Of a stretch of 64,000 nucleotides of DNA, positions 5,977 to 47,220 are shown piece after piece; position 1 is the first letter of the stretch, and each line of letters starts with the position of its first letter. The position numbers and the translations under genes were made by a program. The notes under the pieces are model-generated. The model searched no databases, had not been told where the DNA came from, and saw only the letters and a list, made by a program, of their open reading frames with translations. Source of the DNA: Bacteroidota bacterium (GTDB taxonomy: Bacteria; Bacteroidota; Ignavibacteria; UBA10030; UBA8401); NCBI GenBank assembly GCA_027622375.1, contig JAQCAB010000002.1:95663-159662 (forward strand), given 5' to 3'.

Positions 5977-7065
5977 TTATTTTAAAAAGTTCAGACAAAA
6001 AGTAATTAAAAGTGCGTTTATAAAGTCTATAAAAAAAGCACCAACCATCGGAATAACCAAAAACGCACGATATGCTGGTCCATATTTATCTACTAATACA
6101 CGCATATTAGCCATTGCATTTGCAGTAGTGCCAAGCATAAACCCAACAAAACCTGAACTCATAACTGCAGCTTCGTAATCTTTTCCCATAAATTTATAAA
6201 TTACAAAAACGGAAACCACTAAAATTAAAATTATCTGGAAAAACATTATTACAATTAAAGGAAGCACGAGTCCGGAAAGTTCCCAAAGTTTTAAAGTCAT
6301 GAGCGCCATTACTAAAAAAAGTGATAAAGCTGCATTACCGATGTCATCAATTACATCCTGCGAAAGTCCAATCCAATTTGTTGCATCGTCAATATTTCTG
6401 ATAAGTGAAGCGATAAGCATTGCGCCAATATATGGTGGTAATATCCAGCCAATTGATTTAAACCAATCACTAATTAAACCACCAACCCACATTGCAAAAA
6501 GAATTACAACTAAATTTTTTAAAAGCCAATATGTTTCTTTGTCTTCTCCTTTTGGAGATGATTTTTGATTTAAAGAAATATGAGGCTCAATAATATTTTC
6601 GGCAGTTACATTAATTTGTGAAGATGAAAAATTATTTTTTGATCGTAAATTAAATTTAGTTATTAAATAAGTTCCAACAGGGCCACCAATTAATCCACCA
6701 CTAATAATTCCAGTCATCCCAGCAGCAACTGCAATTGTAGCTGCACCAACAACTCCTGCGTTTTCAAAAAGAGGAGCAAAAGCCAGTCCAGTTGCCGGGC
6801 CGCCTGTTAAAGTTACCGAACCGCTTAATACACCAAATAGTGGTGGAAGTCCAAATAATGGAGCAATTGCAATACCAACTACATTTTGGCAAATAGCAAT
6901 AATTGAAGAAATGATGGTGAATAAAACAACCTGCGGTCCTCCGATTTTTAATATTCCTGCCAATTCCTTAGAAATATGGAAGAAGATTGTTTTAGGATCC
7001 TCTATCAATAATTGTTTTATGCTGGCTAATGTGTATGTATCTGGATCACCGATTATGGTGGATTT
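5977..7065 (-). pseudogene. gltS: Sodium/glutamate symporter GltS, 3' portion (codons about 54 to end) separated from its 5' end by a foreign insert
   Basis: Collinear with E. coli GltS: 'GVLSGSVTLTGGPATG', 'SLFLVMALMTLKLWEL' and 'FLVIPMVGAFFIDFINALLI' match 'GLLAGSITLSGGHGTG', 'SLFLAMALMGLKLWEL' and 'FLVVPMVGAFFIDIVNALVI'. The ORF-track start at 7104 (MET...) lies in insert-derived sequence. Confidence 0.8.
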
Positions 7066-7109
7066 ATACTTGAATTGGGTGTCTTTTATTGAGCCAGTCT
7101 CCATGACTG

Positions 7110-7133
7110 CCTAGTATAGTGAGCTATACTAGG
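7110..7133. repeat. Perfect palindrome CCTAGTATAG-tgag-CTATACTAGG (10-bp stem, 4-nt loop) just downstream of the nhaC-like stop
   Basis: Read directly from the sequence. It is followed on the + strand by T-rich 'tttgtcatggttt'. It could act as a terminator for the minus-strand antiporter gene. Confidence 0.6.
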
Positions 7134-7149
7134 TTTGTCATGGTTTAAA

Positions 7150-9060
7150 TTATGCGAACAGCAGGGTAACGAGTGTCCAGCAAATCGCTGCAAGTATGGT
7201 CGCCATTCCAGCAGGTACAACCTGAGTTTTAACGTGATCCATCAGGTCGCAACCCGTGCACATGGAGCTTAAAATTGTGGTGTCAGAAATTGGGGAACAT
7301 TGGTCGCCGATTACGCTACCATTTAATACGGTTGCAAAACACACTGCCATAAAGAAGGCGGGGTGTGCTAACTCTGAGTTTTGGGCAACGGCCCACGCAA
7401 GTGGCATTGCTAATGGAAATGCTACGGCGTAAGTTCCCCAACTTGTTCCCGTTGAGAATGCGATTAGAATAGTAAGGCCTAGCAAGATGGTAGGTAATAA
7501 CCAAAATGCAATTGATGTGCCGAGTAATTCAACCAAGTAGATTCCACCACCGGTTTGTTGGCTAATAGACCCTATTGTGATGGCTAAAATTAGAATGACA
7601 GATCCTAATACAACGCCTTTTAAACCTTCACCGATGCCTTCAATTAGTTCGGTTACATTCAAACCGCGCAACAGTGCTAGTAAACCAGCTACGATTACAG
7701 CGGCGCCAAATCCCCATCGTACTTGCGGTGATCCAGTCGCGATAAATGTACCAATAGATATGCCAATCAGTGTGACTAGTGGTAAGAAAAAGTCAATTAC
7801 GTGCGGTTTGTAGTGTGCTGGAACGTCTGAGCTATGCAGTTCTTTTGCGCTTAATGGTTTTGCTTGTGGGCCATCAAGTTCGCCTGTTTCTCTTGACCGT
7901 TTTATGGCGGCTTTCATGCGTTTACCTAAGAATGGCGCTTTGTCGATACAAAGTAGGAATGTGCCAAGAACAGCAAAAATGGCGTAAAAACTGAGTGGGG
8001 CGCTTTGGAAGAAGAATCGTAGACGGTCATGTTCAGTGGCAAGAAAGGAAACCCCAGAGACGTATAAGAAGGCCTGTATGTAACCTGGCCACGCATTGAA
8101 TGCTAATAAACAGGCAATAGGAGAGGCTGTTGAGTCTACTATATAAGAGAGTTCCTCATGAGAAATGTTTTCCTTATCTGCAATCGGTTTCACAGTTGTG
8201 CCAACTAAAACGGTACTCATTGTACCACCCTGAAAAAATATAATGCCAAGCATCCACGCGACTAGTCGGGCTGTTTTTGGCCCTTTAACAACATATTTGG
8301 TCATCAGTTCGGCAAATGCTTTTGCGGCACCTGTTCGTGCCCAAATACCCATTAATCCGCCTAACATCCATAGGTATAGTAATAATATTCCAGCCCCACT
8401 TTTACTCATCATCGTTTCTAATAGGACGGCGTCTGATAGGTCAAACATGCCCAATAGAAAGGCGCCTACCACAATACCGCTAAACAGAGATGTGACGGGT
8501 TCGCGTGTTAACCAACACATTATGATGGCAACGAAGGCAGGTAATAATGACCAAAATCCCCAGTGACGTGTGGATTTATATTTGTAGTATTGGTCTATTG
8601 TTGTTCCGTTTACATTGGTGCTTTCATATACATATTCTTCTTCAGGTATTGGTTGGTTGTTTAATACCAGTTGGTCAATATTTGTTTTGGTAAGTTGCGC
8701 CTCTGCAATTGGTACTGCATTCTCAATGGTTTTAGGCTTGCCTTTAAACTTGTAGTAACGGCTACCGTCTTCTGCAATTTGGGTGTCTAGAGTGACCCGT
8801 TCGACGGTCCAGGTTGGGTCTACTTTGAAATGAATGAATAAACTTAATACTAACGCAACAATGAAGATATATAACGCTGGGCTAAATAGCATTTTGCGTA
8901 AGCCAGGAAGACCTATGCTATGCAAGAGTCCTTCTTGGTGTCGAGCTTCCTCATCACCATATACAAATGAATCGTGATGCACATGATCGTCTTGTTCAGA
9001 ATTTGATGTTGGTTGATTGTTACTCATAATTGGTAAAACTCCCTTGTGTTTCGTTGGCAT
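7150..9060 (-). CDS. nhaC: NhaC-family Na+/H+ antiporter with an N-terminal extension of about 190 aa, in a compositionally foreign (higher-GC) segment
   Basis: Multi-TM core running from 'WSLLPAFVAIIMCWLTREP' to 'ILAAICWTLVTLLFA' is typical of NhaC. GC and codon usage are clearly different from the flanks. The ATG at 9058-9060 is preferred over the track's TTG at 9081. Confidence 0.75.
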   Translation of the reverse strand: MPTKHKGVLPIMSNNQPTSNSEQDDHVHHDSFVYGDEEARHQEGLLHSIGLPGLRKMLFSPALYIFIVALVLSLFIHFKVDPTWTVERVTLDTQIAEDGSRYYKFKGKPKTIENAVPIAEAQLTKTNIDQLVLNNQPIPEEEYVYESTNVNGTTIDQYYKYKSTRHWGFWSLLPAFVAIIMCWLTREPVTSLFSGIVVGAFLLGMFDLSDAVLLETMMSKSGAGILLLYLWMLGGLMGIWARTGAAKAFAELMTKYVVKGPKTARLVAWMLGIIFFQGGTMSTVLVGTTVKPIADKENISHEELSYIVDSTASPIACLLAFNAWPGYIQAFLYVSGVSFLATEHDRLRFFFQSAPLSFYAIFAVLGTFLLCIDKAPFLGKRMKAAIKRSRETGELDGPQAKPLSAKELHSSDVPAHYKPHVIDFFLPLVTLIGISIGTFIATGSPQVRWGFGAAVIVAGLLALLRGLNVTELIEGIGEGLKGVVLGSVILILAITIGSISQQTGGGIYLVELLGTSIAFWLLPTILLGLTILIAFSTGTSWGTYAVAFPLAMPLAWAVAQNSELAHPAFFMAVCFATVLNGSVIGDQCSPISDTTILSSMCTGCDLMDHVKTQVVPAGMATILAAICWTLVTLLFA

Positions 9061-9074
9061 GTTGAATTGTAACT

Positions 9075-9233
9075 TTTGCAAATAGTAAAAATTATTGCAA
9101 TTAATAATCCACCAACAACTGCTGGTGGGATGTTGTATCGATTTAAAAAATTAATTTTTTTGCAGATAAAATATCCGACAAATAAAGTAATTCCTGCAAA
9201 AGCTAAAGTTTGCATAAAGTCGAGAATAATCAT
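9075..9233 (-). pseudogene. gltS: gltS 5' fragment (first 53 codons), cut off from the rest of the gene
   Basis: 'MIILDFMQTLAFAGITLFVGYFICKKINFLNRYNIPPAVVGGLLIAIIFTICK' aligns with the E. coli GltS N-terminus 'MFHLDTLATLVAATLTLLLGRKLVHSVSFLKKYTIPEPVAGGLLVALALLVLKK'. After the K the reading frame runs into insert sequence and stops at 9024. Confidence 0.8.
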
Positions 9234-9477
9234 TTAGTAATCCTTAAATTTTTTTTAAGGTAGGTATTCTGATTATTAGAAAAAAGGTTTTAATTGCTAT
9301 GATTTAAAAAATTATGGACTTCAAATATATATTTTTTAAGTGCCCTAAATAATTGTAGAATAGTAGTTGTTTAAATTAAATGCGTTTTGAATTACTGGTT
9401 TTATGATTAATAAATATCTAATCTTTAATTGAATAAAATGCAGAATAAACATATTTTATGTAATTCTAAAAAAAACT

Positions 9478-11196
9478 ATGAAGTTATTAAAATATATTTT
9501 ACTCACAAGTTTTACATTAATTTATTTTGGCTGCGGAGTTACATCTGAAAAAACCCAACAAAATAAAAAAAGCAATCCCCCTAAACGTGAGCTCTCAGCA
9601 AAAGATCAAGCAAAAGCATTGCAATTTTATATTGATGGGAATGAAAAAGAATCCAAAAGAGATTTCTCTGGTGCTATAATTGAGTATTTGGAAGCATTGC
9701 GATTAGATGATAATGATGCAATTTATTTTGCGCTGGCTAAAAACTATGCGGTGTTGAATAAAAATGAGCTGGCAAAGCAAATGCTTTTAAAAGCAATCGA
9801 GAAAGATTCAACACAAAAGGATTATTTTTTAATGCTTGGAGAAGTTCATCTTGCTCTAAATGAAACCGATTCGGCATTAATTCAATTTCAAAATGTTATA
9901 AAAATTGATCCTGAAAATCTTCAATCGATGGTTGGAATTTTAAGTTTAACAGAAAAAACAAAACCACTTATTGCGATTGAAATGTGTAAAAAAATAATTA
10001 ACCAAATTGGCTTTGAAAGAGAAATTTATACTCAGCTAGCAACACTTTATATTAATTTAGAAAAATATGAGGAAGCGACAGAAATTTTTAGCGAATTATT
10101 AAAGCGTGATGAAAACAACAAACCACTTTTGCAAGTTTATATTGACATGCTAATTAGATCGCAAAAATATGATAAGGCCACAGAAAAACTTAAAAAAATA
10201 GTTACAAATAACCCTGATGACGTTGAGGCATTAGCTGTTTTAGCTGATGTTTATTTAAAACAAAATAAGTGGGATGAAGTTGTTCCAATTTTAGAACAAA
10301 TTATTTCGAATGATACAATTGCAATTGATTACAGATTTAGAGCTGCATTAGTTTATTTTACGAGAGCGGAAGTAGATTCAACGGTTTTACAGATTGCAAA
10401 AAAACACTTCATTAATCTTTCACGAAGGGAAGAGAAAGATTGGCGTCCACAATTTTATCTTGGAATAATTTACTCGATTGAAAAAAATGATACTCTCGCA
10501 AAAAATATGTTTGAAAAAGTTACATCACTTGCAACATGGCATTCTGATGCATGGAGTTATATAGCTGCAATTTATTTTGACCGTAAAGAATATAAACAGA
10601 TGGAACAAATTTTAACGAAAGCAATTAATTACGTTAAAAATGATGATAGATTATTTTATTTATTGGGACTCGCATATTCGCAATTAAAAGAAAACCAAAA
10701 AGCAATTTCGAGTTATGAAAAAGCCAGAAAAATCAATCCAAAGAATCTCAATAATTTATCATCACTCGGGCTTGAATATGATAATTTAAAAGAATTTAAA
10801 AAGTCAGATGAAGTTTATGAAGAGGTGTTAAAAATTGATTCAAATAATATTTTAGTTTTAAATAACTATGCTTATAGTTTATCTGAAAGAGGAATTAATT
10901 TAGACAAAGCTCTTATAATGTCTAAAAAATCTATCGAAAGAGATTCCACAAACAGTTCATTTTTAGATACAATTGGTTGGATTTATTTTAAAATGGGAAA
11001 TTTTGATTTGGCGGAAAAATTTATAGAAAAGTCAATTTCAAAAGGTGAAGTTAATTCAATCGTTTATGAACATCTTGGAGATGTTTATGCAAAGAAAAAA
11101 GAAACCACTAAGGCAAAAGCTTGGTGGAGTAAAGCTCTTGAAAAAGATCAAAATAATTCTGTATTAAAAGAAAAAATTTTACGTAGTGGATTATGA
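9478..11196 (+). CDS. Tetratricopeptide-repeat lipoprotein
   Basis: Signal peptide with lipobox 'YFGCGV', then many TPR-like helical repeats. First gene of a conserved TPR/DUF4292/M23 trio. Confidence 0.8.
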   Translation: MKLLKYILLTSFTLIYFGCGVTSEKTQQNKKSNPPKRELSAKDQAKALQFYIDGNEKESKRDFSGAIIEYLEALRLDDNDAIYFALAKNYAVLNKNELAKQMLLKAIEKDSTQKDYFLMLGEVHLALNETDSALIQFQNVIKIDPENLQSMVGILSLTEKTKPLIAIEMCKKIINQIGFEREIYTQLATLYINLEKYEEATEIFSELLKRDENNKPLLQVYIDMLIRSQKYDKATEKLKKIVTNNPDDVEALAVLADVYLKQNKWDEVVPILEQIISNDTIAIDYRFRAALVYFTRAEVDSTVLQIAKKHFINLSRREEKDWRPQFYLGIIYSIEKNDTLAKNMFEKVTSLATWHSDAWSYIAAIYFDRKEYKQMEQILTKAINYVKNDDRLFYLLGLAYSQLKENQKAISSYEKARKINPKNLNNLSSLGLEYDNLKEFKKSDEVYEEVLKIDSNNILVLNNYAYSLSERGINLDKALIMSKKSIERDSTNSSFLDTIGWIYFKMGNFDLAEKFIEKSISKGEVNSIVYEHLGDVYAKKKETTKAKAWWSKALEKDQNNSVLKEKILRSGL

Positions 11197-11939
11197 GGAA
11201 ATTACTAATTCTTCTTGTTGTATTTTTTGGATGTGCTTCTGTAAAAGAAGTTGAAGAAATCAATTTAAATAACAAGAGTTTATTACCAGAAGAAGTAATT
11301 AATAATGTAAATAGTTTTGCATATACAATTAACAACTGCAAAACAAATGGAACAATTGAAGTTAATTTTGACTCACTTTCAATTACTTTAGAATTTACTT
11401 CTTACTTAAAAAATAGAGATACTTTGAAAATTGATTTAACTGGTCCATTTGGTTTGGAATTGGGAAGTGCATTAATTACAAAAAATTATTTTTTGATTTA
11501 TAATAAATTTGAGAATATAGTTTTAGAGGGGATTGTAGATTTAAGCAAATTACCGATTTCTATCCCACCATCTTTTAAAGTTGATGAATTATTTTCATTT
11601 TTTGCTAATGTTAGATTACTTCCATTAAATTCAGAAATAACTACAAACGAAATAAATAAAAGCTTTATAATTAAAACTAATTCTAATAATTTATCATCAA
11701 CTTATTTTGTAGAAAATGGAATGTTGTCAAAAGTATCACACAACAAAGAAACAAAAAACATATTAAATGAATATTATAGCTATGAAAATAATAATTTAAA
11801 ATATTTCAACTCAGTAGTATTGGAAACCCCGCAGAATAAAAGACAAATCAAAATAAACTATAACTCGATTGAATATAATATTGAAATGCCATCGCTTATG
11901 TTTGAAGTTGATAATAAGGCAAAGCGAAAATCAATATGA
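11193..11939 (+). CDS. DUF4292-like (LolB-fold) outer membrane lipoprotein
   Basis: Lipobox 'FFGCASV', about 250 aa, overlapping stop/start with its neighbours. The position between the TPR protein and the M23 peptidase matches the common FCB-group operon. Confidence 0.45.
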   Translation: MRKLLILLVVFFGCASVKEVEEINLNNKSLLPEEVINNVNSFAYTINNCKTNGTIEVNFDSLSITLEFTSYLKNRDTLKIDLTGPFGLELGSALITKNYFLIYNKFENIVLEGIVDLSKLPISIPPSFKVDELFSFFANVRLLPLNSEITTNEINKSFIIKTNSNNLSSTYFVENGMLSKVSHNKETKNILNEYYSYENNNLKYFNSVVLETPQNKRQIKINYNSIEYNIEMPSLMFEVDNKAKRKSI

Positions 11940-13159
11940 AGTTAATTTATAAAATTTCATTTTGTTTTATAATTGCACTGCAAATAGTTTATACAAATCA
12001 AGATGTGCAGAAAAAGAAGAAGGATTTAGTAAAACTCAAAAATGAAATAGAGGAATTTGAAAAAAAAATTGATGAGAGCGAGCGAAAAGAAAAAAACACA
12101 CTTGAACAGCTTGATAATTATGAAAAACAAACCAAGTTGCTTCATGAATTAATTGATGGATTAAATAATAAACAAGCATTTATTCGCCAATCAATTTTAA
12201 AAACAATTGAAAATATTGTTCAGCTTGAAAAGGAAATAAACATCTTAAAAGAGCATTATTCAAAGTATGTTAAAAATGTTTATACAAAAGGGAGAACGTA
12301 TGATTTTGAAACATTAATTTCATCAACAAGTATAAATCAATTATACATACGGCTTACTTATTTAAAAAGTTTTTCAGATCAAAGAAGAAAAGATTTACAA
12401 GATATTCGTAGTCATAAAGACATTTTATTAACTCAGCAAGATATTTTATTTACGCAATTGCGAGAAGAAGAAAAATTAATAACGGATAAAAAAAATGAAG
12501 AATCAAAAACAATTGCAAAAACCGAAAAGCGCAAAACACTTCTTCAAAAAATTAGAAAAGATAAATCATTATTTGTAAGTGAGCTGAATAGAAAACTAGA
12601 ATCGGCAAAAAAATTAGAAGGATTGATCTCACAAATAATAGAATCTGAAATAATACGAAAAGAGGAAGAAAGAAAACGGGAAAAATTAAAACTTGAAAAA
12701 GAAAAACTACTTGCGAAAAAATCTACAACCCCAAAACCTAATCTTATCACATTCAAAGATTTTCCAAATAAAGGTAATTTAAGATGGCCAGTTAATTCAA
12801 GAATAATTTCCGCTGGATTTGGAAGCATTATTCATCCTGTGCTTAAAACTGTTACGCAAAATAATGGAATTGATATTAAAGTGCCTGCTGGAACTTTAGT
12901 AAAATGTGTTGCTGTTGGTGAAGTCAGTATGGTGCACTGGCTCCCTTCATTTGGGAATCTTGTAATTGTAACTCACGCAAAAGATATGCGAACAGTTTAT
13001 ACAAATTTAAAAACTGTTTCAGTCCAAGATGGAGATAAAATTAATGAAGGGGATTTAATTGGGACAAGTGGCGAATCAGTTGAAGGAGAGTTACTTCACT
13101 TTGAAATATGGAAAGAAAAAGTAAAACAAAATCCAAAGGAATGGTTGGCTAAAAAATAA
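11936..13159 (+). CDS. M23 family metallopeptidase with N-terminal coiled coil (EnvC-like murein hydrolase activator)
   Basis: Long coiled-coil region, then a LytM/M23 domain 'GIDIKVPAGTLVKCVAVGEVSMV...GNLVIVTHAKDMRTVYTNL...GDLIGTSGES'. Confidence 0.8.
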   Translation: MKLIYKISFCFIIALQIVYTNQDVQKKKKDLVKLKNEIEEFEKKIDESERKEKNTLEQLDNYEKQTKLLHELIDGLNNKQAFIRQSILKTIENIVQLEKEINILKEHYSKYVKNVYTKGRTYDFETLISSTSINQLYIRLTYLKSFSDQRRKDLQDIRSHKDILLTQQDILFTQLREEEKLITDKKNEESKTIAKTEKRKTLLQKIRKDKSLFVSELNRKLESAKKLEGLISQIIESEIIRKEEERKREKLKLEKEKLLAKKSTTPKPNLITFKDFPNKGNLRWPVNSRIISAGFGSIIHPVLKTVTQNNGIDIKVPAGTLVKCVAVGEVSMVHWLPSFGNLVIVTHAKDMRTVYTNLKTVSVQDGDKINEGDLIGTSGESVEGELLHFEIWKEKVKQNPKEWLAKK

Positions 13160-13260
13160 ATTATTCTTTAGACTGAACTCTATTCATTCTCATTTCGAAG
13201 GTGTGTCAAAATGGACGCAACATTTTTAGCAGTTAGAACAGTTTTGTTTTCGCTGATACT

Positions 13261-14535
13261 CTAAAATGTTTCCGTATTTGCTAAAACAGGTTTCTCAAAA
13301 TCAATTTGTACTAAATAAATACTCATTAATAAAGAAATTAAAAAATAGCTAATAAGTATATAGTTCCCAAATGAAATTATTACGTTTAAGCCAAACCAAT
13401 CGCCATAATAGTTTATAATTCCAATTGAAAAAACAAATCGAAGGCATTCCCAAAAAACTGAAATTTTTCTGGTATCCATTAATTCTGTGTAGCTGTAAAT
13501 GGTTAGGAAAATAAAAAGGCCATAAATAAAAATAGCTGGTAAACCAATTTGAACAAGGCTATGAAGTAGATGGCTTACAAATAACAAAGTGATTAACATT
13601 TGTGTTATTGACCAATAAACTAACTTGGTTGAATTTCGTGTTCCATATTTATTAAAATTGTAAACATTAGTAATTTTATTTACAGGATATTTTGTTTCAA
13701 AATTTTCAGGTCTCCATCCAGTTGGTTGAAACCAAATGGTAAATTTATCTTTCCAGTTTTCTGATCTCCATGCATCAGAGATTAGTAATCCTAAATGTTG
13801 AAAGTTAATCCGAATAGGATTCCAAGTTTGTGCTGGTCTCGTAATACCATAAACTGGAGTCACAGTGGCTAATTCTTCTTGAAAAGTACCAAAAAGTTTA
13901 TCCCAAATAATGAATATTTGAGAATAATTTTTATCCAGATATTCTGGATTTATAGCATGATGCACACGATGATGAGATGGTGTAACTAATATGTTTTCTA
14001 GGAACCCCATTTTTTTAATATGTTTGGTATGATACCAAAATTGTAGAAATAATTGAATAGGTAATGTAATTGCAATTACTTGTGAAGGAACACCTAAAAT
14101 TGCAGCAGGAATAAGTAATATTAAAAATAAATTTACAAAACTAGAAATCGTTTGTCTCAAAGCACAAGCTAAATTAAACTCTTCGCTACTATGATGTATA
14201 GCATGCCTATTCCAAAAAAAATTAATTTGATGCGCTAAACCATGCGTACAATACCCATAAAAATCAATGGCAATAAAAGCAATGATATAGGCTAAAATAC
14301 CCGCTTCTAAATGAAAAATTGCTACTTTGGCAACTAACCATTCATAAGAAATAAGTGTTACACTTAATCCTAAAACATCTTTTACGGCATTAGTAATACC
14401 GGAACTTATACTGGAAACACTGTCCATATATGGCGCAGTATCTTCGCCTTTATAGTATCCATAAACTTTTTCAATTACAACTAATAGAAGAAAAAGAGGC
14501 ATTGCAATAAGCAATATCTTACCGTATTGTTCCAT
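13261..14535 (-). CDS. Fatty acid hydroxylase / sterol desaturase family membrane protein
   Basis: Histidine boxes 'HGLAH', 'NRHAIHHSSEE' and 'HHRVHHAINPEY', plus a C-terminal TM region. Confidence 0.7.
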   Translation of the reverse strand: MEQYGKILLIAMPLFLLLVVIEKVYGYYKGEDTAPYMDSVSSISSGITNAVKDVLGLSVTLISYEWLVAKVAIFHLEAGILAYIIAFIAIDFYGYCTHGLAHQINFFWNRHAIHHSSEEFNLACALRQTISSFVNLFLILLIPAAILGVPSQVIAITLPIQLFLQFWYHTKHIKKMGFLENILVTPSHHRVHHAINPEYLDKNYSQIFIIWDKLFGTFQEELATVTPVYGITRPAQTWNPIRINFQHLGLLISDAWRSENWKDKFTIWFQPTGWRPENFETKYPVNKITNVYNFNKYGTRNSTKLVYWSITQMLITLLFVSHLLHSLVQIGLPAIFIYGLFIFLTIYSYTELMDTRKISVFWECLRFVFSIGIINYYGDWFGLNVIISFGNYILISYFLISLLMSIYLVQIDFEKPVLANTETF

Positions 14536-14575
14536 TTTATTTAGTTAAAACTTAATCGAAGATACTAAATTATTT

Positions 14576-15975: not shown

Positions 15976-15977
15976 CC

Positions 15978-36128: not shown

Positions 36129-36137
36129 TTATAAAAA

Positions 36138-37130: not shown

Positions 37131-37139
37131 AAAAAATAT

Positions 37140-38192: not shown

Positions 38193-38197
38193 AAAAA

Positions 38198-38383: not shown

Positions 38384-38417
38384 TTTCTACTCCTTTAAGG
38401 TGTTCAGTTTTTCTATT

Positions 38418-38954: not shown

Positions 38955-39026
38955 TGAACAAATTTTTTCTATGGAGAAATTTTGCTCAATATACCGAGAG
39001 TTGAGAAATTAAGCAAGATAAGAAAA

Positions 39027-39323
39027 CTAATCGTGGTGCTCTTGGTCTTGCGAACGATTAGAATAAGTTACACCTAATTCTTTTAATTTATTTTCGGCAA
39101 AACTTACAGATTGATTAAATGATTCTAAAAAGTTTTTAAAATCTTCCTTATAAACAAAAATTTTACTTCTGCTAATTTTACCTTCCATTTTTTTATTTTC
39201 AGTGATGACCACATAAAAATCATTTTCAGCTTTTGTAGCGCGTACATCAAAGAAGTAGCTTCTTCTCCCGGCGCGAATTTTAACGGTGTGTAGTGGTTGG
39301 TTTTTCGGATCGTTCATTTCCAT
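39027..39323 (-). CDS. DUF3276 (PUR-like nucleic-acid-binding) protein
   Basis: 'VKIRAGRRSYFFDVRATKAENDFYVVITENKK...SKIFVYKEDFKNFLESF' matches the DUF3276 pattern. Confidence 0.5.
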   Translation of the reverse strand: MEMNDPKNQPLHTVKIRAGRRSYFFDVRATKAENDFYVVITENKKMEGKISRSKIFVYKEDFKNFLESFNQSVSFAENKLKELGVTYSNRSQDQEHHD

Positions 39324-39359
39324 AACTGCTCCTTTTTTATTTGTTTAAAAATAAATTCT

Positions 39360-41564
39360 TTATCTAATAATTGCAATTTTAGCATATCCAACTTTAGCGC
39401 CTTCTAAGTCATACGCAATAGCAAAATAAATTCCGCTCGAAACAAAATTTCCAACATTATCTTTACCATCCCAAAAACCTTGCCCGCCACCTTGAGCATC
39501 AAATTGATTTATTAATGTCCCCGAAGAAGATAAAATCTTAATAAGACAATTTTTTGTCAAACCAGAAATTGTTATGGCGTTATTATTTGTAATTCTAAAA
39601 GGTTGAGGAGAAATTGAAAGCTTATCTAATTTTTCTGAAGGAACAATAAATGGAATTGTAAAACTTGAGAGCCCTTTATCGGTACCGGCATAAACAATTC
39701 CTTTTTGTTCATCAATCGCAAGCGAAAGAATATTATTACTTACAAGTTTTCCAGAAGTTGTTGAAGTGCTGTAATGATTTATAAGTATAGTTCCATCGGG
39801 CGAAAGGCAATAAATTCCCTGAGGTGTTCCAATCCATTTATTATTAATTCCATCAACCGCCATACAATTTATCATCTGCTCTCTTATTACTCCCAAATAA
39901 ACTTTTGAAATATTTTTTGTTGGAGTAGTTGGATTATTTATAATTGAAATACCGGAAGTTGTGCCAAGCCAAATATCTCCATCTTTTCCACCAACAATTG
40001 AGGTAATTTGCGAATTTGTTAATCCATTTGCATCTGTAATAATTCCCCAATTATCACTTGTGTTTGCAATGTTTATTTTATCATTATAGAAAACACAAAG
40101 CGCGTTCGGTGTAAAACCAGTTAAACTATTTATAAACCATTTCGTTCCATTATTGTCAATAAATAATCCCAGAATATTTATGTAGTTATTATTTAGTGAA
40201 GTTTTATAAGAGGTCCAAACAGAATCCGGTGTCATTTTCCACAAAACATTTAAAGTTGTTGGACGGTAAAGTGAAATCCATAAATTATTTTCTTTGTCAA
40301 ATGAGTTGCCACCAGATACAATAAATGTTGGATCGTCAGCACCTGCAAAGCCGGGATAATTATTATCAAAAGTTTTTAAAACTTTTCCCTCTTTACTAAC
40401 CAAAACAATTCCCTTACCCCAGGAGCTAATTAATTTTTCATTTGTTGGTGTGATTGTGATATTAAAAAAGTCATTACTTTTTAATTTTGGTTCAGTATCA
40501 ACATTATAGTTTGTCCAAGTTGATCCATTATATCTATAAAATCCGTAACCACTACTTCTACCGGATGTAGCCCAAATATCTCCATTTTTATCAATCGCAA
40601 CTGAAGAAAAATAATTTTTTGAAGGAGAGTTTGGAGAATAAATTAACCACTTATTATTTTGTAACTGAGCAACACCATTTGATTTTATTCCAACAAGAAG
40701 TTGTTTTTGAGAACTGATAACTCCATCTGTTAAACTATTTATTGAGGTTGGCCCATATTGATTAATAACACCAGATTTTGAAAATTGTTTAATTGTATTT
40801 TCCTGAAAAATATAAATTAAGCTATCTCTCTTAATTAATTTTAAAGAAGGTTGATTCAAATTGTTAACAACACTCCATTCATTATTTATCAAAGAAAAAA
40901 CTCCCGAAGTAGTTGCTGCAAACATTTTATTATCGAACAAACAAAGCGAAGTACTTTTATTAAAAGTTGTTTGCCACGATTCAGGGGCCGATAAATTTGT
41001 TGCATTTATTTTTGAAACAGCAATTCCTTTTTCAGTTGCTAAAAATAACTGACCATTAAAACTTAAAACATCGTAAACCATTGTTTGGCTAAAATCACCA
41101 AAATTATTATAAGTGTCTAAAAACTCTTTACGCGAAAGGGAATAAAGTGAAACCCCAAAATCAGTTGCAATAAACATTGTATCACCAGAATTATAAAAAT
41201 TGTTAATGCCTTTCTGGTTTTTTAGAGATAAGAAAATATCTTTAATAGAGTTTATTGAATTTGTTGTTGGATCCAAAACATCAATCATTCCAGATAACGA
41301 ACCAATCCAAACTAAACCATTTTTATCAATCTCAATTGCTGTTGCATCATTTGATGACAATCCATCTACATTTGTAAATTTTGTAACGGTTGAATCAATT
41401 TGATTTAATTTATAAACACCACCAGTTGTTGCAACCCATAAAATATTATTTACTGATGTCATTGCCTTAACGTCATTCATAGAAGTAAAACTTTTCCAAG
41501 TTTGCGCAGTTGTTGAAAAAAATAAAAAATCTAAAAAAATAAACAGCAACAATAATCTCGACAC
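39360..41564 (-). CDS. Secreted beta-propeller protein (two-component-regulator-propeller-like repeats) with T9SS-type C-terminal domain
   Basis: Signal peptide and repeated 'GGVYKL / GLSSND...IDKNGLVWIGS' propeller blades. C-terminal 'GIYFAIAYDLEGAKVGYAKIAIIR'. Confidence 0.55.
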   Translation of the reverse strand: MSRLLLLFIFLDFLFFSTTAQTWKSFTSMNDVKAMTSVNNILWVATTGGVYKLNQIDSTVTKFTNVDGLSSNDATAIEIDKNGLVWIGSLSGMIDVLDPTTNSINSIKDIFLSLKNQKGINNFYNSGDTMFIATDFGVSLYSLSRKEFLDTYNNFGDFSQTMVYDVLSFNGQLFLATEKGIAVSKINATNLSAPESWQTTFNKSTSLCLFDNKMFAATTSGVFSLINNEWSVVNNLNQPSLKLIKRDSLIYIFQENTIKQFSKSGVINQYGPTSINSLTDGVISSQKQLLVGIKSNGVAQLQNNKWLIYSPNSPSKNYFSSVAIDKNGDIWATSGRSSGYGFYRYNGSTWTNYNVDTEPKLKSNDFFNITITPTNEKLISSWGKGIVLVSKEGKVLKTFDNNYPGFAGADDPTFIVSGGNSFDKENNLWISLYRPTTLNVLWKMTPDSVWTSYKTSLNNNYINILGLFIDNNGTKWFINSLTGFTPNALCVFYNDKINIANTSDNWGIITDANGLTNSQITSIVGGKDGDIWLGTTSGISIINNPTTPTKNISKVYLGVIREQMINCMAVDGINNKWIGTPQGIYCLSPDGTILINHYSTSTTSGKLVSNNILSLAIDEQKGIVYAGTDKGLSSFTIPFIVPSEKLDKLSISPQPFRITNNNAITISGLTKNCLIKILSSSGTLINQFDAQGGGQGFWDGKDNVGNFVSSGIYFAIAYDLEGAKVGYAKIAIIR

Positions 41565-41574
41565 AATAAAATTC

Positions 41575-42411
41575 CTAAATAACTTTATTTGAAAAAAGTC
41601 TTCGTTTCATCGCTTCAATAGAGTTTGAATCGACAAAATAATTTCCAAGAGCGGTGTCATCATTTCTTCTTCCGCCATGAAAATCTGAACCACCTGAACC
41701 AAGTAAAAAATATTGACTCACAATGTTTTGATAATGATTTGTTAATTCAATTGTATGCGATGGATGAATAACTTCAATTCCATCCACACCTGCTGAAATA
41801 ATACTTTGCAACATATCGCTTGAAGTTTGCCTCCCGGGATGAGCAAGAAAAGATAAACCGCCAGCTGATGAAATTAATTGAATTGTTTGTTCGGGACTCA
41901 TCACAAATTTTTTTTCGTAAGCAGGACAATTATTTCCAATTAATTTTTCAAACGCTTCCTGGTAATTCGAAATAAATTTTTCATCAACAAGTGCCATTGC
42001 AATATGTGGTCTCCCAATTGCGCCCCCTTTTGCTTTTTGTAGAACTGAATCAAATTTTAGAGGAATTTTTAATTTATTTAATTTTTCAACAATTCTTTCT
42101 GCTCTTCTAACTCTTTCAAGTCTGAAAAAAGTTAAATAATCTTTTAATCTTTGATTATTAAAATCAATAAAATAACCAAGTATATGATACTCTTTTACAC
42201 CATCTGTTGCGCTTAACTCAACACCAGGTATAATTTCCATATTAAAAATTTTTGCTTCTTCGGCTGCTTCATTAAATGATTCTGTAGAATCATGATCTGT
42301 AATACTTATAGTATTTAAATTTTTTGAATTACATTTTTGAATTAATTCTTTTGGAGAGAACACACCATCTGAAAATGAGGTGTGCATATGAAGGTCAGCT
42401 TTTATTTTCAC
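41575..42411 (-). CDS. PHP-domain phosphoesterase
   Basis: 'ADLHMHTSFSDG' and 'ISITDHD' PHP motifs. Confidence 0.8.
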   Translation of the reverse strand: MKIKADLHMHTSFSDGVFSPKELIQKCNSKNLNTISITDHDSTESFNEAAEEAKIFNMEIIPGVELSATDGVKEYHILGYFIDFNNQRLKDYLTFFRLERVRRAERIVEKLNKLKIPLKFDSVLQKAKGGAIGRPHIAMALVDEKFISNYQEAFEKLIGNNCPAYEKKFVMSPEQTIQLISSAGGLSFLAHPGRQTSSDMLQSIISAGVDGIEVIHPSHTIELTNHYQNIVSQYFLLGSGGSDFHGGRRNDDTALGNYFVDSNSIEAMKRRLFSNKVI

Positions 42412-42474
42412 AATTCTAATATCCTCTCATACAACATCAAGTCTCAACTTAACAAAACAAATCTTTTTAACTTA

Positions 42475-43161
42475 TCAAGTATAAAGTTGTTTAAACTTTT
42501 CGTAATCAGTAATAATAAGTTTGTTCCCTTGTAGTCGAAGTTGACCTTTTTTAATAAATTTATGGAGTGTTCTGGAGATTGTCTCTCGAGCAGTTCCGGC
42601 CATATTTGCGATATCTTGTTGCATTGGCAAATCATCAATTTCAACTTTTCCTTTTCTAAAAAAACCAATATCGTCAGCCAACTGTAACACAACAGTTGCA
42701 ACTCTTCCCGTTGCGTCTTTAAGTGAAAGAGATTTTATTTGTGCATCAGCTTTACGTAATCGATTTGTTAACTCGCGTAAAAGTGCAACACCAACAATTG
42801 GATGACTGTGTAAAAGTTTTAAAAAATCGTGACGTTGAATTACAAAAATTTCTGCTTTTGCTGTTGCAACAACTGTTGCTGATCTTGTTTGGCCATCCAA
42901 GATTGCCATCTCACCAAAAAAATCACTCGGGCCAAGAATTGATAAAATTACTTCGCGTCCTTCTTCGTCCATCCGAACAACTTTTACTTTTCCATTTACA
43001 ATTACAAACATCGAAGCAGCCGATTCTTTTTCTAATAAAATTACACCACCTTTATTAAATTTTTTTCGCGAGCCTAATTGTGTTATTCTTTCTAATTCAA
43101 GATCTGTTAGATCGCTAAAAATTGGAACATATTTTAAAAATTCGATGTCGGCTTTGCTCAT
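42475..43161 (-). CDS. Crp/Fnr family transcriptional regulator
   Basis: cNMP-binding domain 'GDFFGEMAIL' plus a C-terminal HTH 'QQDIANMAGTARETISRTL'. Confidence 0.85.
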   Translation of the reverse strand: MSKADIEFLKYVPIFSDLTDLELERITQLGSRKKFNKGGVILLEKESAASMFVIVNGKVKVVRMDEEGREVILSILGPSDFFGEMAILDGQTRSATVVATAKAEIFVIQRHDFLKLLHSHPIVGVALLRELTNRLRKADAQIKSLSLKDATGRVATVVLQLADDIGFFRKGKVEIDDLPMQQDIANMAGTARETISRTLHKFIKKGQLRLQGNKLIITDYEKFKQLYT

Positions 43162-43257
43162 AATTAAGAAAATATAGACGTGATAAGGCTCAAAAGCAAA
43201 TAAAGATTTTTAGTTGCAATTACTTGATTTTCTGCAAATTTACTATAACTTATATAT

Positions 43258-44265
43258 ATGAAAAAGTTATTGGTATCTATTTTTGTTATGGTCATTTGGT
43301 TCGGTTGCGAAGATTCTCTTATAGATCCAATTTCAGGAGATGATCCTACAACAATTCCAGATTTGTACCATAACCCAGTTAATTGGATTTCTTTTTCAGC
43401 TGATGGCAATTATTTAATTACCACTTCACCCGAAGATCAAAATTTTTGGTCAGCATTATTAGTTAGAAAGGTACCAAGTTTTGATACTTCAGATTTTCAA
43501 ATTCCTGATACATTAATTTCTAATGGATCGATAGTTGTTCATAGTGCAATAATTACAAAAAACTTTGAAACAAATAAAAAATATTTTATTGTTGGTAGTA
43601 ATGGTGGAGCAAATTTGTATGAATATAAAACAACAGGTGGTGCTAAGCTTTTTACTAGAATTTCGATAACTGGAAATGTAACTCAACTAGCTATTTATAA
43701 TGATTCATTACTTGCTTGTGGATCGAGTACGGGTATTATAAAAATTTGGAATTTGGTTAGCAATAACTTAATTAAAACAATTTCGGCACATAGTGGGGAA
43801 ATTACTGGTTTAGCAATAACTGAAAATGGTAAGTCAATTATCTCAAGCTCTTTGGATAATTCGATTGTAATTTGGAGAATTTCTGATGGTAAACCACTTC
43901 ATACTATGTATCATAATAATAGTGTAACTGGAATATCAATTAGTCCCGATGAAAAATATCTTGTTAGTGTTGGGCTCGATAAAAATATAAATATTTGGAA
44001 TCCTATTAATGGCGATTGGTATAGAACAATAAAAGATAATGATTGGATAAATGCAGTTGTATTTAGCCCAGATAAAAAAACAATTGCTACTGGGGGTGAT
44101 GATAATATTGTAAAACTTTGGGATGTATCAACAGGGAAGAAATATAACAATGGCGAGATAACAAATCATACAAATCGAATACTTGCTCTTGCATATAGTA
44201 TTGATGGAAAATATTTAGCATCAAGCGCAGCAGATAAAAAACTTGTTATTACAAAAATGAAATAA
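43258..44265 (+). CDS. WD40-repeat lipoprotein
   Basis: Lipobox 'WFGCEDS' and multiple WD40-like repeats ('IKIWNL', 'IVIWRI', 'INIWNP', 'VKLWDV'). Confidence 0.75.
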   Translation: MKKLLVSIFVMVIWFGCEDSLIDPISGDDPTTIPDLYHNPVNWISFSADGNYLITTSPEDQNFWSALLVRKVPSFDTSDFQIPDTLISNGSIVVHSAIITKNFETNKKYFIVGSNGGANLYEYKTTGGAKLFTRISITGNVTQLAIYNDSLLACGSSTGIIKIWNLVSNNLIKTISAHSGEITGLAITENGKSIISSSLDNSIVIWRISDGKPLHTMYHNNSVTGISISPDEKYLVSVGLDKNINIWNPINGDWYRTIKDNDWINAVVFSPDKKTIATGGDDNIVKLWDVSTGKKYNNGEITNHTNRILALAYSIDGKYLASSAADKKLVITKMK

Positions 44266-44266
44266 T

Positions 44267-44644
44267 ATGTACACATCAACTACAGAAAATATAGAAGTCT
44301 CAGTTCAGCCAGTTTACCTTGATGGACAATCGAACTGGATGGAAAAAAAATTTACATTTGCATACTTTATTAAAATAACTAATAGTAGTAATTCGCCAGT
44401 AAAATTATTACGCCGGCATTGGTATATAACTGATGGAGATGCTGCTGTAAAAGAAGTTGAAGGGATTGGTGTTGTTGGCAAGCAACCAATAATTAAACCT
44501 GGTAAATCGCATAAATATAATAGCTTTTGTGTATTGGAAAATATGGAAGGATCTATGAGTGGCACATATTTAATGAAGCGGGGAAGTGAAGAAGTATTTA
44601 AAATTTCTATTCCAAAATTTGCATTAAGAGCTAACGCAAACTAA
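44267..44644 (+). CDS. apaG: ApaG-domain protein
   Basis: 'VSVQPVYLDGQS...FAYFIKITNSSNSPVKLLRRHWYITDGDAAVKEVEGIGVVGKQPIIKPG' is the ApaG/DUF525 pattern. Confidence 0.8.
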   Translation: MYTSTTENIEVSVQPVYLDGQSNWMEKKFTFAYFIKITNSSNSPVKLLRRHWYITDGDAAVKEVEGIGVVGKQPIIKPGKSHKYNSFCVLENMEGSMSGTYLMKRGSEEVFKISIPKFALRANAN

Positions 44645-44663
44645 TTTTTTTTGATATAAAATA

Positions 44664-44699
44664 AAAAAGGCACTCTTTTACGAGTGCCTTTTTAAATTT
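44664..44699. terminator. Bidirectional rho-independent terminator between convergent apaG and the EF-hand gene
   Basis: AAAAAA-GGCACTC-ttttac-GAGTGCC-TTTTT: a 7-bp GC-containing stem flanked by an A-run and a T-run. Confidence 0.7.
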
Positions 44700-44714
44700 A
44701 AAAGAGAAATTTAA

Positions 44715-45269
44715 TTAATCCTTAAATTCTTCTTTGTTCAAAGACCCATCACCATTTTTATCACGTTTTTTAAATTCATCTTCCCAATTTGGGTCACTTC
44801 CGAATGCCATTTTGGCTTCATTTTTACTGACTTTGCCATCATTATTTTTATCTACAGTTTCAAATGATGGGCCTTGCTGACCGCCTTGCTGACCGCCTTG
44901 TTGACCACCTTGCTGACCGCCTTGTTGACCACCTTGCTGACCACCTTGTTGACCACCACCAGTTCCTTGTCGTGCTAAAAATTCATTTTTATCTAAAACA
45001 CCATCACCATTTTTATCACGTTTATTAAATTTATCTTCCCAATTTGTGTCACTTCCGAATGCCATTTTAGCTTCATTTTTACTGACTTTGCCATCATTAT
45101 TTTTATCTACAGTTTCAAATGATGGGCCTTGCTGACCGCCTTGCTGACCGCCTTGTTGACCACCTTGTTGACCACCTTGTTGACCACCTTGTTGACCACC
45201 ACCAGTTGGAGGTTGATAACCACCTGGAGGACGTTGACCACCGCTACCTTGGCCAGCAGCTTTTTTATA
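44715..45269 (-). pseudogene. Secreted EF-hand repeat calcium-binding protein, 3' portion (distal to insert 2)
   Basis: EF-hand loops 'DKNNDGKVSKNE' and 'DKNGDGVLDKNEF' with GGQQ linker repeats. The frame is open upstream to 45278 with no start codon, and it continues the 46942-47220 fragment if the insert is removed. Confidence 0.7.
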
Positions 45270-45290
45270 ACATAAATTTTAAGTCGTGTC
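44795..45290. repeat. Near-identical tandem direct repeats of about 243 bp inside the EF-hand gene, containing (GGTTGNTGACC)n GGQQ-coding microrepeats
   Basis: 'gtcacttccgaatgccatttt(a/g)gcttcatttttactgactttgccatcattatttttatctacagtttcaaatgatgggccttgctgaccgcc...' occurs at about 44805 and again at about 45048. Confidence 0.8.
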
Positions 45291-45311
45291 AATCTAGACT
45301 ATTATCACAGG

Positions 45312-46637
45312 TTAAACGTCAAAAATCGAGTCTGGTTGAAGGGTTGCTTCCATTACGGTTTTCCATAAACGTCCATTAGGATCTACTCTATTCCGTGATT
45401 TTATAGCCATTTCTATAGGAACATTGATGAAATGATGATTCCAATACCCTATCATCATATTAGTTTTACCTGACATAGCAGCATGTACTGCATTTTGGCC
45501 TAGCTCTAAGCAATATGTGGAATCTATAGCATTTGCAGGTACTCCTCTTATTATATAGCTGGGATCTATATATTTAAGATTAATATTCCTGCCCTTATTC
45601 TTAAAGTACTCGGGAATCGTGCCTTTGAGATAAAGACCTATATCTCTTAATTTTAAATTCCCCGATTTATCCCTTTGCTCTAGATATGAATTGTTTTCCA
45701 TTAAATATTGTCCGGCACCTTCAGCTACAACTACAACTGCATGTCCTTTTCTGTCTAGGCGTTTTTCTAATGAGTTTAATAATCCGCCGCTACCTTCAAG
45801 TTTAAATGGGACTTCCGGGATTAGACAGTAATTTACATCTCTATTCGCTAATGTCGCATGGGCAGCGATATACCCGGAATGTCTGCCCATAAGCTTTACT
45901 AAACCTATACAATTTGGGGCTCCGCTCGCCTCTACATGGGCACAGGATATTACTGACATTGCTTTTTCAACTGCTGTTTGAAACCCAAATGACATTTTTA
46001 CATAATTAAGATCATTATCAATAGTCTTAGGTAAAGCGATTATAGAAATACCAAGGTTTTGATTTTTTATTTCTTCGTTTATTTCTTTTGCCCCTCGCAT
46101 TGTCCCATCGCCGCCAATGATAAATAAAATATTAATTTTATTTTTTTTCAATGTTTGTACTATGTCTTTAGTGTCCCGCGGCCCCCTTGAGGAGCCTAGT
46201 ACAGTACCACCAAGCCTATGTAAACCATCAACGTTTTCAACAGTTAAATTTAATGGTTCTTCTATAGAATCTTTTGTTATACCTAAGTACCCATACTTAA
46301 ACCCTAAGATCCTTCTTACTCCATACCTTTCACTAAGCTCTGAAACTATAGACTGTATAACATCATTGAGTCCGGGACATAGACCGCCGCATGTCACTAT
46401 ACCGCATGATATTTTTGGTGGGTCAAAATGGATTTTATCTTTAGGCCCTGCTATCTCGAAGAATGTAATACCGTTTTTCTTCTCTTCCTTTTCTAACTCA
46501 CTACTATGGGTATTGTATACTATACAATCGTCTCCAACAAAAGTTGAGCTTTTGCTAGAGCATAATGGTGAAGGTATCTTTGCTTCACCGACAGTATCTA
46601 TGTGTATTTTATTTATTTTAATAGTTTGTGCCTTAAG
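45312..46637 (-). CDS. pfk: 6-phosphofructokinase, plant/long-type ('GIVTCGGLCPGLN...GGDGT...MGR...PKTIDND'), in a foreign-composition segment with no canonical start codon
   Basis: All the PFK catalytic motifs are present. The in-frame 5' extension (80 codons, ending 'AGPKDKIHFDPPKISCGIV') is homologous to plant-type PFK N-termini but contains no ATG, GTG or TTG. The only alternate start is the GTG at 46395-46397, inside the conserved 'IVTCGG'. Confidence 0.7.
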   Translation of the reverse strand, partial: LKAQTIKINKIHIDTVGEAKIPSPLCSSKSSTFVGDDCIVYNTHSSELEKEEKKNGITFFEIAGPKDKIHFDPPKISCGIVTCGGLCPGLNDVIQSIVSELSERYGVRRILGFKYGYLGITKDSIEEPLNLTVENVDGLHRLGGTVLGSSRGPRDTKDIVQTLKKNKINILFIIGGDGTMRGAKEINEEIKNQNLGISIIALPKTIDNDLNYVKMSFGFQTAVEKAMSVISCAHVEASGAPNCIGLVKLMGRHSGYIAAHATLANRDVNYCLIPEVPFKLEGSGGLLNSLEKRLDRKGHAVVVVAEGAGQYLMENNSYLEQRDKSGNLKLRDIGLYLKGTIPEYFKNKGRNINLKYIDPSYIIRGVPANAIDSTYCLELGQNAVHAAMSGKTNMMIGYWNHHFINVPIEMAIKSRNRVDPNGRLWKTVMEATLQPDSIFDV

Positions 46638-46649
46638 TTACATAACCTA

Positions 46650-46941
46650 TTATTTACCGGCCCCACTCATAAACCCTGTTAATACATCATCAAATGTTGT
46701 GAAACTTTTAGTATAAAATGACTTCTGTTTTAAAGCATTACGCCATTTTACAACATTTTTATAAGGTGATATATCTAACCCGGATGCCTCTGAAGGATCA
46801 AGCATAGCTAATAAAGTTATATCTGCTAAACTAAAAGCCTCTCCTGACAAATATTCATTTTTTCCTAATTGCGCATCAACTATAGGCAAAAATCTGGCAT
46901 AAAATCTTATACCGTCTTTCTTCGATAGTTCATCAACTTCC
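46650..46941 (-). pseudogene. Glutathione S-transferase C-terminal-domain fragment (5'-truncated)
   Basis: 'RFYARFLPIVDAQLGKNEYLSGEAFSLADITLLAMLDPSEASGLDISPYKNVVKWRNALKQKSFY' is a GST alpha-helical C-domain with no thioredoxin-like N-domain. The part of the track ORF upstream of 46941 is spurious. Confidence 0.6.
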
Positions 46942-47220
46942 ATACCCATCATTATTTTTATCACGATTATCAAACTCAGTTTGCCAATTTGGATCGCCAC
47001 CAAATTTAGCTTTTGCTTCGTCCATACTAATTTTACCGTCGTGATTTGAATCAACATCACCAAATTGCATCGGTTGTTGACCACCACCTGGTGGAGGACC
47101 TTGTGGTGCGCCTCCCGGTGGATATTGACCCCCGGTTGGGGGTCGTGTTCCTCCCTGGCTATATGAGTCAACATATAGTATTAGAAGAAACAGAAAAACT
47201 AAACTTATTACATTTCTCAT
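46942..47220 (-). pseudogene. Secreted EF-hand repeat protein, 5' portion (signal peptide plus first EF-hand), truncated at insert 2
   Basis: 'MRNVISLVFLFLLILYVDSYSQ' signal peptide, a PPGG-rich linker and the EF loop 'DSNHDGKISMDEAKAKFGGDPNWQTEFDNRDKNNDG'. A strong SD 'AGGAGGT' lies upstream of the ATG. Confidence 0.7.

Follow-up and report, generated by a model that had tools for sequence, protein, structure and literature searches.

A stretch of 64,000 nucleotides from a Bacteroidota genome assembly (NCBI GenBank GCA_027622375.1, contig JAQCAB010000002.1, positions 95,663 to 159,662 of the forward strand; the whole stretch is called the window below) contains two segments of foreign DNA, designated insert 1 and insert 2, which split the sodium/glutamate symporter gene gltS and a gene for an EF-hand protein, respectively. 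An initial annotation, made from the letters alone, had described both inserts as foreign cargo of one shared architecture, each joined to its host gene at a single shared codon and each removable to leave a clean reading frame. We report here that the foreign nature of the inserts is well supported, and that insert 1 is a piece of an ordinary donor chromosome that replaced part of gltS. The shared precise architecture of the two inserts does not hold. The gltS locus is composed of the following parts.

9071 to 9233, minus strand: gltS 5' part, about codons 1-54, ending ...IIFTICKSY; matches positions 1-52 of the Pfam Glt_symporter profile and aligns with residues 1-54 of 410-aa homologues.
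6946 to 9070, minus strand: insert 1, a 2125-bp donor chromosome fragment, 100% identical to positions 185-2309 of contig L007.
7150 to 9027, minus strand: nhaC, an intact NhaC-family Na+/H+ antiporter gene of 625 aa (Pfam Na_H_antiporter, E = 9.8e-31), the sole complete gene of insert 1.
6946 to 7104, minus strand: stump of a donor LPG_synthase_C gene, its first 53 codons (METGSIKD...ELAGILK), 159 bp, in frame with gltS at about codon 89.
5977 to 6945, minus strand: gltS 3' part, from ...IGGPQVV to the stop codon; Pfam Glt_symporter profile positions 89-368, E = 2.3e-77.

The NhaC protein encoded here was found in identical form on L007, a contig of 2878 bp from the sibling sample SAMN03444948 (ENA MEHR18-1_SAMN03444948 scaffold_84472). 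Positions 185-2309 of this contig correspond to window positions 9070-6946 over all 2125 bp with zero substitutions. The remaining parts of the contig, 1-184 and 2310-2878, gave no alignment with the window even at a blastn word size of 7 (this comparison concerns insert 1 only). On L007, a leftward uvrB gene, whose product's N-terminus is encoded in the left flank, is followed by a rightward nhaC, a spacer of 45 bp and a rightward LPG_synthase_C gene with an open reading frame (ORF) of at least 242 aa. The Pfam LPG_synthase_C domain of the latter (aa 38-241) crosses the boundary of the shared segment at aa 53, and the GC content of the flanks, 0.43, equals that of the shared segment. L098, an independent relative from another run, encodes an NhaC that is 86% identical and keeps the same gene order with the same 45-bp spacing; its LPG_synthase_C-type gene has the N-terminus and the position seen on L007. 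The two contigs are collinear at 73% nucleotide identity, and their alignment goes straight across the boundary. Because the domain spans the boundary, the flank GC matches and L098 is collinear, L007 represents the native context of the segment.

Since the identity with L007 is confined to 6946-9070, the left end of insert 1 is at 6946. The initial annotation had placed this junction at a TTT codon at 7063-65, which lies 117 bp inside the donor DNA. Insert 1 is an arbitrary chunk of the donor chromosome, which begins 43 bp upstream of nhaC in the uvrB-nhaC intergenic spacer, includes the complete nhaC and the 45-bp spacer, and stops at codon 53 of the next donor gene. The nearest relatives of the NhaC protein were 86% identical (P0243) and then 64-70% identical; several of them are named Margulisbacteria, and a Margulisbacteria-like donor of roughly 43% GC is suggested. 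The 100% identity over 2125 bp indicates that the acquisition of insert 1 was very recent and that donor and recipient shared a habitat.

The host gltS is devoid of Pfam profile positions 53-88, which amount to about 35 residues in comparison with the intact 410-aa homologues and correspond to FDFLPISFDKQLEKPLMISFFCSIGFGASLKLLK in the closest of these (P0123). Among the intact homologues, P0122 and P0123 share 76-77% identity with its 3' part. About 100 bp of the target were replaced in the event, which was not a clean insertion; an excision of insert 1, which had been expected to leave a clean in-frame gene, leaves gltS short by those residues. The continuity of the reading frame at 6945/6946 is a chance fusion of 53 foreign codons with gltS. 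The resulting chimeric ORF (5977-7104, minus strand, 375 aa) is deposited at NCBI as MDA0986225.1 with the annotation sodium/glutamate symporter. Residues 1-53 of this protein are derived from the foreign LPG_synthase_C-family gene, and the remainder is the gltS product from about residue 89, with the first two transmembrane segments absent. From the annotation, the disruption of gltS is not apparent, and the database entry is chimeric. At the other end, the gltS 5' ORF (69 aa) runs into insert 1, and its TGA stop codon (9024-9026) overlaps the ATG of nhaC (ATGA, 9024-9027). By chance, this overlap may couple the translation of nhaC to the gltS leader.

The second locus is composed as follows.

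46945 to 47220, minus strand: EF-hand gene 5' part, with a signal peptide, a linker rich in G, P and Q, a complete EF-hand loop and the start of a second one (its first 6-7 residues, DKNNDG...).
45267 to 46944, minus strand: insert 2, about 1.68 kb of foreign DNA; the ends are approximate, about +/-3 nt at 46944 and about +/-15 nt at 45267.
46650 to 46940, minus strand: 3' fragment of a glutathione S-transferase (GST) gene, about 96 codons, about 290 bp; Pfam GST_C profile positions 32-89 only, with no N-terminal domain.
45312 to 46616, minus strand: pfk (6-phosphofructokinase gene), full length, 434 aa, ATA start (NCBI model P0242); Pfam PFK, E = 7.6e-64.
44715 to 45266, minus strand: EF-hand gene 3' part, with a G/Q-rich linker and two repeat units of two EF-hand loops each; Pfam EF-hand_1 in four stretches, E = 1.6e-17.

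The boundaries of insert 2 are approximate because no donor sequence was found for it. It consists of the GST stump, a 28-bp spacer, the full-length pfk and about 45 bp of downstream sequence, in this order. The GST fragment has no start codon, and its reading frame runs into the 5' part of the EF-hand gene. The initial annotation had allowed only tens of bp beyond the cargo genes; the 159 bp of a second donor gene in insert 1 and the truncated GST in insert 2 are at odds with this. The best non-self homologues of the PFK were 60-66% identical, several being named Omnitrophota, and this suggests an Omnitrophota-like donor. In the neighbourhoods of the PFK relatives P0003 and P0004, no GST gene was found beside PFK. 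Around the N-terminus of the inserted pfk (46595-46640) there is no ATG, GTG or TTG; ATT/ATA stands where the homologues have Met, with AAGG about 8 nt upstream. The ENA and Logan gene calls give a GTG-started product of 361 aa that is devoid of the first 80 or so residues. From the reading of this region, the inserted pfk would either use a rare start codon or be crippled.

The 5' part of the EF-hand gene gave weak EF-hand Pfam hits and shares homology with the repeat units found in the 3' part, whose frame is open from 45278. When the two host parts are rejoined at the ATA codon proposed as the junction, the frame is kept, but the EF-hand loop becomes DKNNDGYKKAAG. The five other loops of the protein (DSNHDGKISMDE, DKNNDGKVSKNE twice, DKNGDGVLDKNE and DKNGDGSLNKEE) keep the pattern D-x-N-x-D-G-x-[ILV]-x-x-x-E, which is broken in the rejoined loop. 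Therefore, at least five or six host codons (at least about 15-18 bp) are missing at insert 2, and clean excision at ATA fails here as well. The trinucleotide identities themselves, TTT at 7063-65 and 9075-77 and ATA at 45267-69 and 46942-44, are present in the sequence, but such matches are expected by chance within a fuzzy boundary zone. Two further features of this gene were observed: two units of 223 bp, 93.7% identical with a period of 255 bp, lie at 44724-45200, and runs of a 12-nt GGTCAACAAGGT-type repeat code for (GGQQ)n linkers, within which the Logan contigs break (44844, 45174).

The base composition was then compared between the inserts and the host. The GC content was 0.427 for insert 1 (6946-9070), 0.359 for insert 2 (45267-46944) and 0.305 for the rest of the window. 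The tetranucleotide distance to the host profile was 0.518 for insert 1 and 0.462 for insert 2; among 500 host segments of matching size, the maxima were 0.31 at the size of insert 1 and 0.35 (0.354) at that of insert 2. The k-mer comparison, which had been proposed as a check in the initial annotation, places both inserts far outside the host range, and the distance between the two inserts was 0.43. The GC content at third codon positions (GC3) was 0.38 for nhaC and 0.28 for pfk, both outside the range of 24 host genes (mean 0.169 +/- 0.023, maximum 0.222). These results confirm that the inserts are foreign and compositionally distinct from the host. Both are located on the minus strand and are co-oriented with the minus-strand host genes that they split, as had been described, and this agrees with the Pfam split of gltS and with the 3' part of the EF-hand gene, which has no start codon of its own.

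The earlier statement that mobility functions are lacking was likewise confirmed. The Pfam content of the inserts was limited to NhaC, the LPG_synthase_C stump, the GST_C stump and PFK, and no integrase, transposase or recombinase gene was detected in either insert or elsewhere in the 64 kb. No terminal inverted repeats, flanking direct repeats or target-site duplications were found at the ends of either insert; the repeat search at the insert ends returned just short AT-rich chance matches, such as 12 nt at 6944-6955 and 9081-9092, which lie off the boundary. No end motif or repeat was common to both inserts, and no relatives of NhaC or PFK were found in the IMG/VR viral contigs.

We consider it probable that both inserts were acquired by very recent horizontal gene transfer, through double illegitimate recombination or end joining, from two unrelated donors living together with the host. 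Two random pieces of chromosomal DNA, one from the Margulisbacteria-like and one from the Omnitrophota-like donor, would have been taken up by the cell, and insert 2 may also be recent. Each piece would have been joined at both ends without homology, using at most a few bases of microhomology, and would have replaced a short host stretch, in gltS about 100 bp and in the EF-hand gene at least about 15-18 bp, with inactivation of both genes. Each would have brought one complete gene, nhaC or pfk, together with the stump of a neighbouring donor gene. The insert ends lie inside donor genes (codon 53 of LPG_synthase_C; GST), as expected for random fragments. Because neither piece has much upstream sequence of its own, the promoters of the disrupted host genes probably drive the transcription of nhaC and pfk. 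Selection for transcription could account for the co-orientation and for the persistence of the alleles; the co-orientation of both inserts would also be a 1-in-4 coincidence. That the capture was independent of homology, as the initial annotation had proposed, agrees with the absence of donor-host similarity outside insert 1 and of recognisable mobile-element machinery in the window.

The junctions of insert 1 are compatible with joining of this kind. At 9070/9071, an AC directly beyond the strictly identical stretch is common to window and donor (2 nt, or perhaps as many as 6-7, ACAATT). At the opposite end, the donor sequence is ...ATATTAAAA/CAG, the gltS of the 77%-identical relative reads CTTTTAAAAAGTGGCGGA, and the host resumes with ATCGGAGGA. 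Judged from the DNA of this relative, a TTAAAA overlap at 6946/6945 is suggested, and short microhomologies at the junctions of insert 1 are plausible.

Several points weigh against this account. The GC3 of the GST stump is 0.206, inside the host range, although its roughly 97 codons are too few to discriminate; insert 2 may accordingly be older and partly ameliorated, or composite. The donor of insert 2 was not found, and the non-self matches in the PFK search top out at 66% identity. Exact-protein look-ups of the neighbouring TPR, ApaG and Lon proteins returned only contigs of the same sample and no insert-free allele of the host, and the closest intact GltS, 76-77% identical, is located within a different gene neighbourhood. 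With no such allele at hand, the lost host bases and the true microhomologies are estimated from relatives that are only 76-77% identical. Laboratory rates of such events are extremely low, so that two fixed events inside 40 kb of core genome are surprising. Finally, every assembly considered below rests on reads of one sample (SAMN03444961 / SRR2027830).

The same outcome could have been reached by other enzymology, with double-stranded foreign fragments captured as filler at chromosomal double-strand breaks by Ku/LigD non-homologous end joining (NHEJ) or by alternative end joining, in place of an annealing of single strands at microhomologies in the course of transformation or replication. 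Break repair typically removes some target DNA, leaves junctions that are blunt or nearly so (at most a few nt of microhomology) and captures unrelated DNA; the loss of about 100 bp and at least 15 bp of target, the apparently near-blunt junctions and the unrelated DNA found here fit this. The inferred microhomology of 6 nt fits annealing-based models equally well, and no Ku or LigD gene was present in the 64 kb, although this is uninformative for the whole genome. No competence genes and no Ku/LigD were found in the 64 kb plus 9 kb of host genome that was available. We regard break repair as the actual route as possible, though rather doubtful.

Another explanation is that the inserts are artefacts, that is, library-preparation or amplification chimeras or assembly errors, and that the host gltS and EF-hand genes are really intact. 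This was examined by comparison with public assemblies. The ENA assembly contains window positions 6946-64000 at 100% identity in scaffold MEHR18-1_SAMN03444961_METAG-scaffold_1236 and positions 1-7000, likewise at 100%, at the end of its scaffold_126; the Logan contigs of run SRR2027830 match the window at 100%. The NCBI contig of the metagenome-assembled genome (MAG), 166,139 bp long, encodes the same genes as the window (MDA0986225.1, MDA0986226.1, MDA0986265.1). The junction 9070/9071 is internal to the ENA scaffold and to Logan contig 120842, and both junctions of insert 2 (46944/46945 and 45266/45267) are internal to ENA scaffold_1236 and to Logan contig SRR2027830_218334. ENA and Logan contigs break off at 6945/6946, but scaffold_126 extends to 7000 and scaffold_1236 begins at 6946, giving an overlap of 55 bp. 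An overlap of this length is what a branch vertex typically produces in a graph of k = 55, which means that k-mers link host position 6945 to 55 donor-identical bases. This junction is bridged outright by the NCBI MAG contig, which encodes the fused 375-aa ORF. The Logan contig also begins at 6946. The branch point of the assembly graph thus coincides with the donor/host junction, as would be expected if the recipient's sample contained the donor genome too.

An artefact would be in keeping with the occurrence of the insert 1 donor in the same study at 100% identity, with the break of ENA and Logan contigs exactly at 6946 where the graph branches, with the use of one sample's reads by all assemblies, and with the rarity of two such events inside 40 kb. 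However, host and donor share at most 2-7 nt at the junctions, and a de Bruijn assembler (k of at least 21-55) needs spanning reads to join them; scaffold_126 itself has the 55 donor-identical bases past the junction. Three different assemblies of the sample agree on the junctions, and none of them contains a path with an intact gene. Beyond each insert, the same host gene resumes after a gap of about 20-100 bp, so that two matching chimeric junctions per locus would be required, whereas random chimeric reads would be low-coverage singletons. With both junctions of each insert present in the public ENA/SPIRE, Logan and NCBI assemblies, the artificial or chimeric origin that the initial annotation had considered is improbable.

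Delivery by a mobile element (an insertion sequence (IS) or composite transposon, an integron cassette, an integrative and conjugative element (ICE) or a phage), with subsequent loss of the machinery by deletion, has in its favour that most horizontally acquired genes arrive in this way and that the small deletions beside the inserts could be scars of element loss. We consider it very unlikely, given that no transposase or integrase remnants, terminal inverted repeats, attC-like or att repeats or target duplications were found, that insert 1 matches a normal chromosomal locus of the donor beside uvrB collinearly and base for base, and that the cargo genes have no viral relatives in IMG/VR. A precise or targeted integration system that places co-oriented cargo at a shared codon and restores the gene on excision, for which the co-orientation, the trinucleotide identities and the similar sizes (1.7-2.1 kb) might speak, is scarcely credible in view of the insert 1 end at 6946, 117 bp from the proposed codon, the roughly 35 missing gltS codons and the missing part of the EF-hand loop, the ends inside donor genes as random breakpoints would give, the lack of end motifs or repeats common to the inserts, and a window with no recombinase gene.

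The window itself is core chromosome of about 30.5% GC, with genes for Lon, DnaX, BipA, MreD/PBP2/RodA, trigger factor, ClpP/ClpX, RNase III, a fab cluster, PriA, LepA and LepB. PorZ and a sorting domain of the type IX secretion system (T9SS) are encoded in it, which points to a host of the Fibrobacteres-Chlorobi-Bacteroidetes (FCB) group. The Tmk protein of the host had its best matches among the GTDB species representatives at 45-53% identity, most of them in MAGs named Ignavibacteria, Kapaibacteria or Bacteroidota. Judged by these proteins, the host appears to be an uncultured Ignavibacteria/Kapaibacteria-like Bacteroidota bacterium of roughly 30% GC. The Tmk relatives, at no more than 53% identity, were of no use for defining the junctions. 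Two long ORFs of 424 and 416 aa (4688-5959 and 62451-63698, both plus strand) had no Pfam match at E <= 1e-5. On ENA scaffold_126, about 7.4-8.9 kb upstream of window position 1 (L012 415-1896), a phytoene-desaturase-like (Amino_oxidase) gene is apparently broken into two ORFs, an N-terminal one of 78 aa and a C-terminal one of 364 aa, with about 150 bp between them; a further gene disruption in this genome, or a frameshift, may be the cause.

Natural cases in which genes were gained through illegitimate recombination alone have rarely been documented with both partners known. At insert 1, one can see the donor locus, the exact ends of the fragment and the recipient gene that was disrupted. 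The locus shows an inter-phylum transfer free of mobile elements together with its scars, namely loss of target DNA, stumps of genes and in-frame fusions that arose by chance. It is also instructive that junctions deduced from reading a sequence alone can be wrong by more than 100 bp and still look clean. Two captures from two different phyla lie inside 40 kb of core genome, and at least one of them is recent enough for the copy to match its donor fully over 2.1 kb. It is conceivable, though we think it quite unlikely, that the host lineage is unusually permissive for homology-independent capture of environmental chromosomal DNA. If the density seen here held genome-wide, dozens of such patches would be expected. 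Such permissiveness would suggest that illegitimate recombination is less strongly suppressed (as after a loss of RecJ/ExoX/RecA-type control) or that end joining is very active, and the lineage would offer a natural system for studying double illegitimate recombination, so far known from selection in the laboratory, with the donors in hand.

Comparison with known systems places the inserts as follows. IS elements, transposons, integron cassettes and genomic islands also bring foreign genes of deviant composition, sometimes into the interior of genes. Unlike IS elements and transposons, the inserts have no transposase, terminal inverted repeats or target-site duplication, and the target was deleted. 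Integron cassettes differ from them in the imperfect inverted repeat at the 3' end, which is not seen here, and no integrase gene is present in the 64 kb; the cargo of insert 1 is collinear with a chromosomal locus. In comparison with prophages, ICEs and islands, no integrase, att repeats, phage genes or conjugation genes were found, and the sites are inside protein-coding genes (no tRNA scan was run). Homology-facilitated illegitimate recombination (HFIR; de Vries & Wackernagel 2002; Prudhomme et al. 2002, as cited in PMC4437187) likewise produces foreign DNA with an illegitimate junction at the level of microhomology. However, it needs a homologous anchor on one side, and there is none here, the L007 flanks being unlike the host on both sides.

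The closest likeness is to homology-independent double illegitimate recombination, which according to Hulter & Wackernagel 2008, as cited in PMC4437187, occurs in natural transformation. In both cases, heterologous DNA without an anchor on either side (here seen for insert 1) is joined, and recipient DNA is replaced or deleted, with no target-site duplication and no mobile-element functions. Junctions with zero to a few nt of microhomology, which characterise that process, are suggested for insert 1 by the DNA of a relative. In contrast to the laboratory events, the present ones occurred in a natural, uncultured Bacteroidota population and were not selected in the laboratory; they are inserts of about 2 kb with intact genes, two of them inside 40 kb. 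The short-patch form of double illegitimate recombination (SPDIR), from work of 2016 described in bioRxiv 10.1101/2023.11.22.568220 with rates of about 1e-12 to 1e-13, joins ectopic DNA at microhomologies on both sides and, like the present events, leaves an insertion-plus-deletion pattern. Its patches are microindels of 3 to about 100 bp, as compared with the segments of 1.7-2.1 kb described here. The process as such is already known; less common are a natural case that can be resolved to the donor locus and two cases from different phyla inside 40 kb. The inserts are not an IS element, integron cassette, island, prophage or product of HFIR, and they behave like double illegitimate recombination or NHEJ-type capture.

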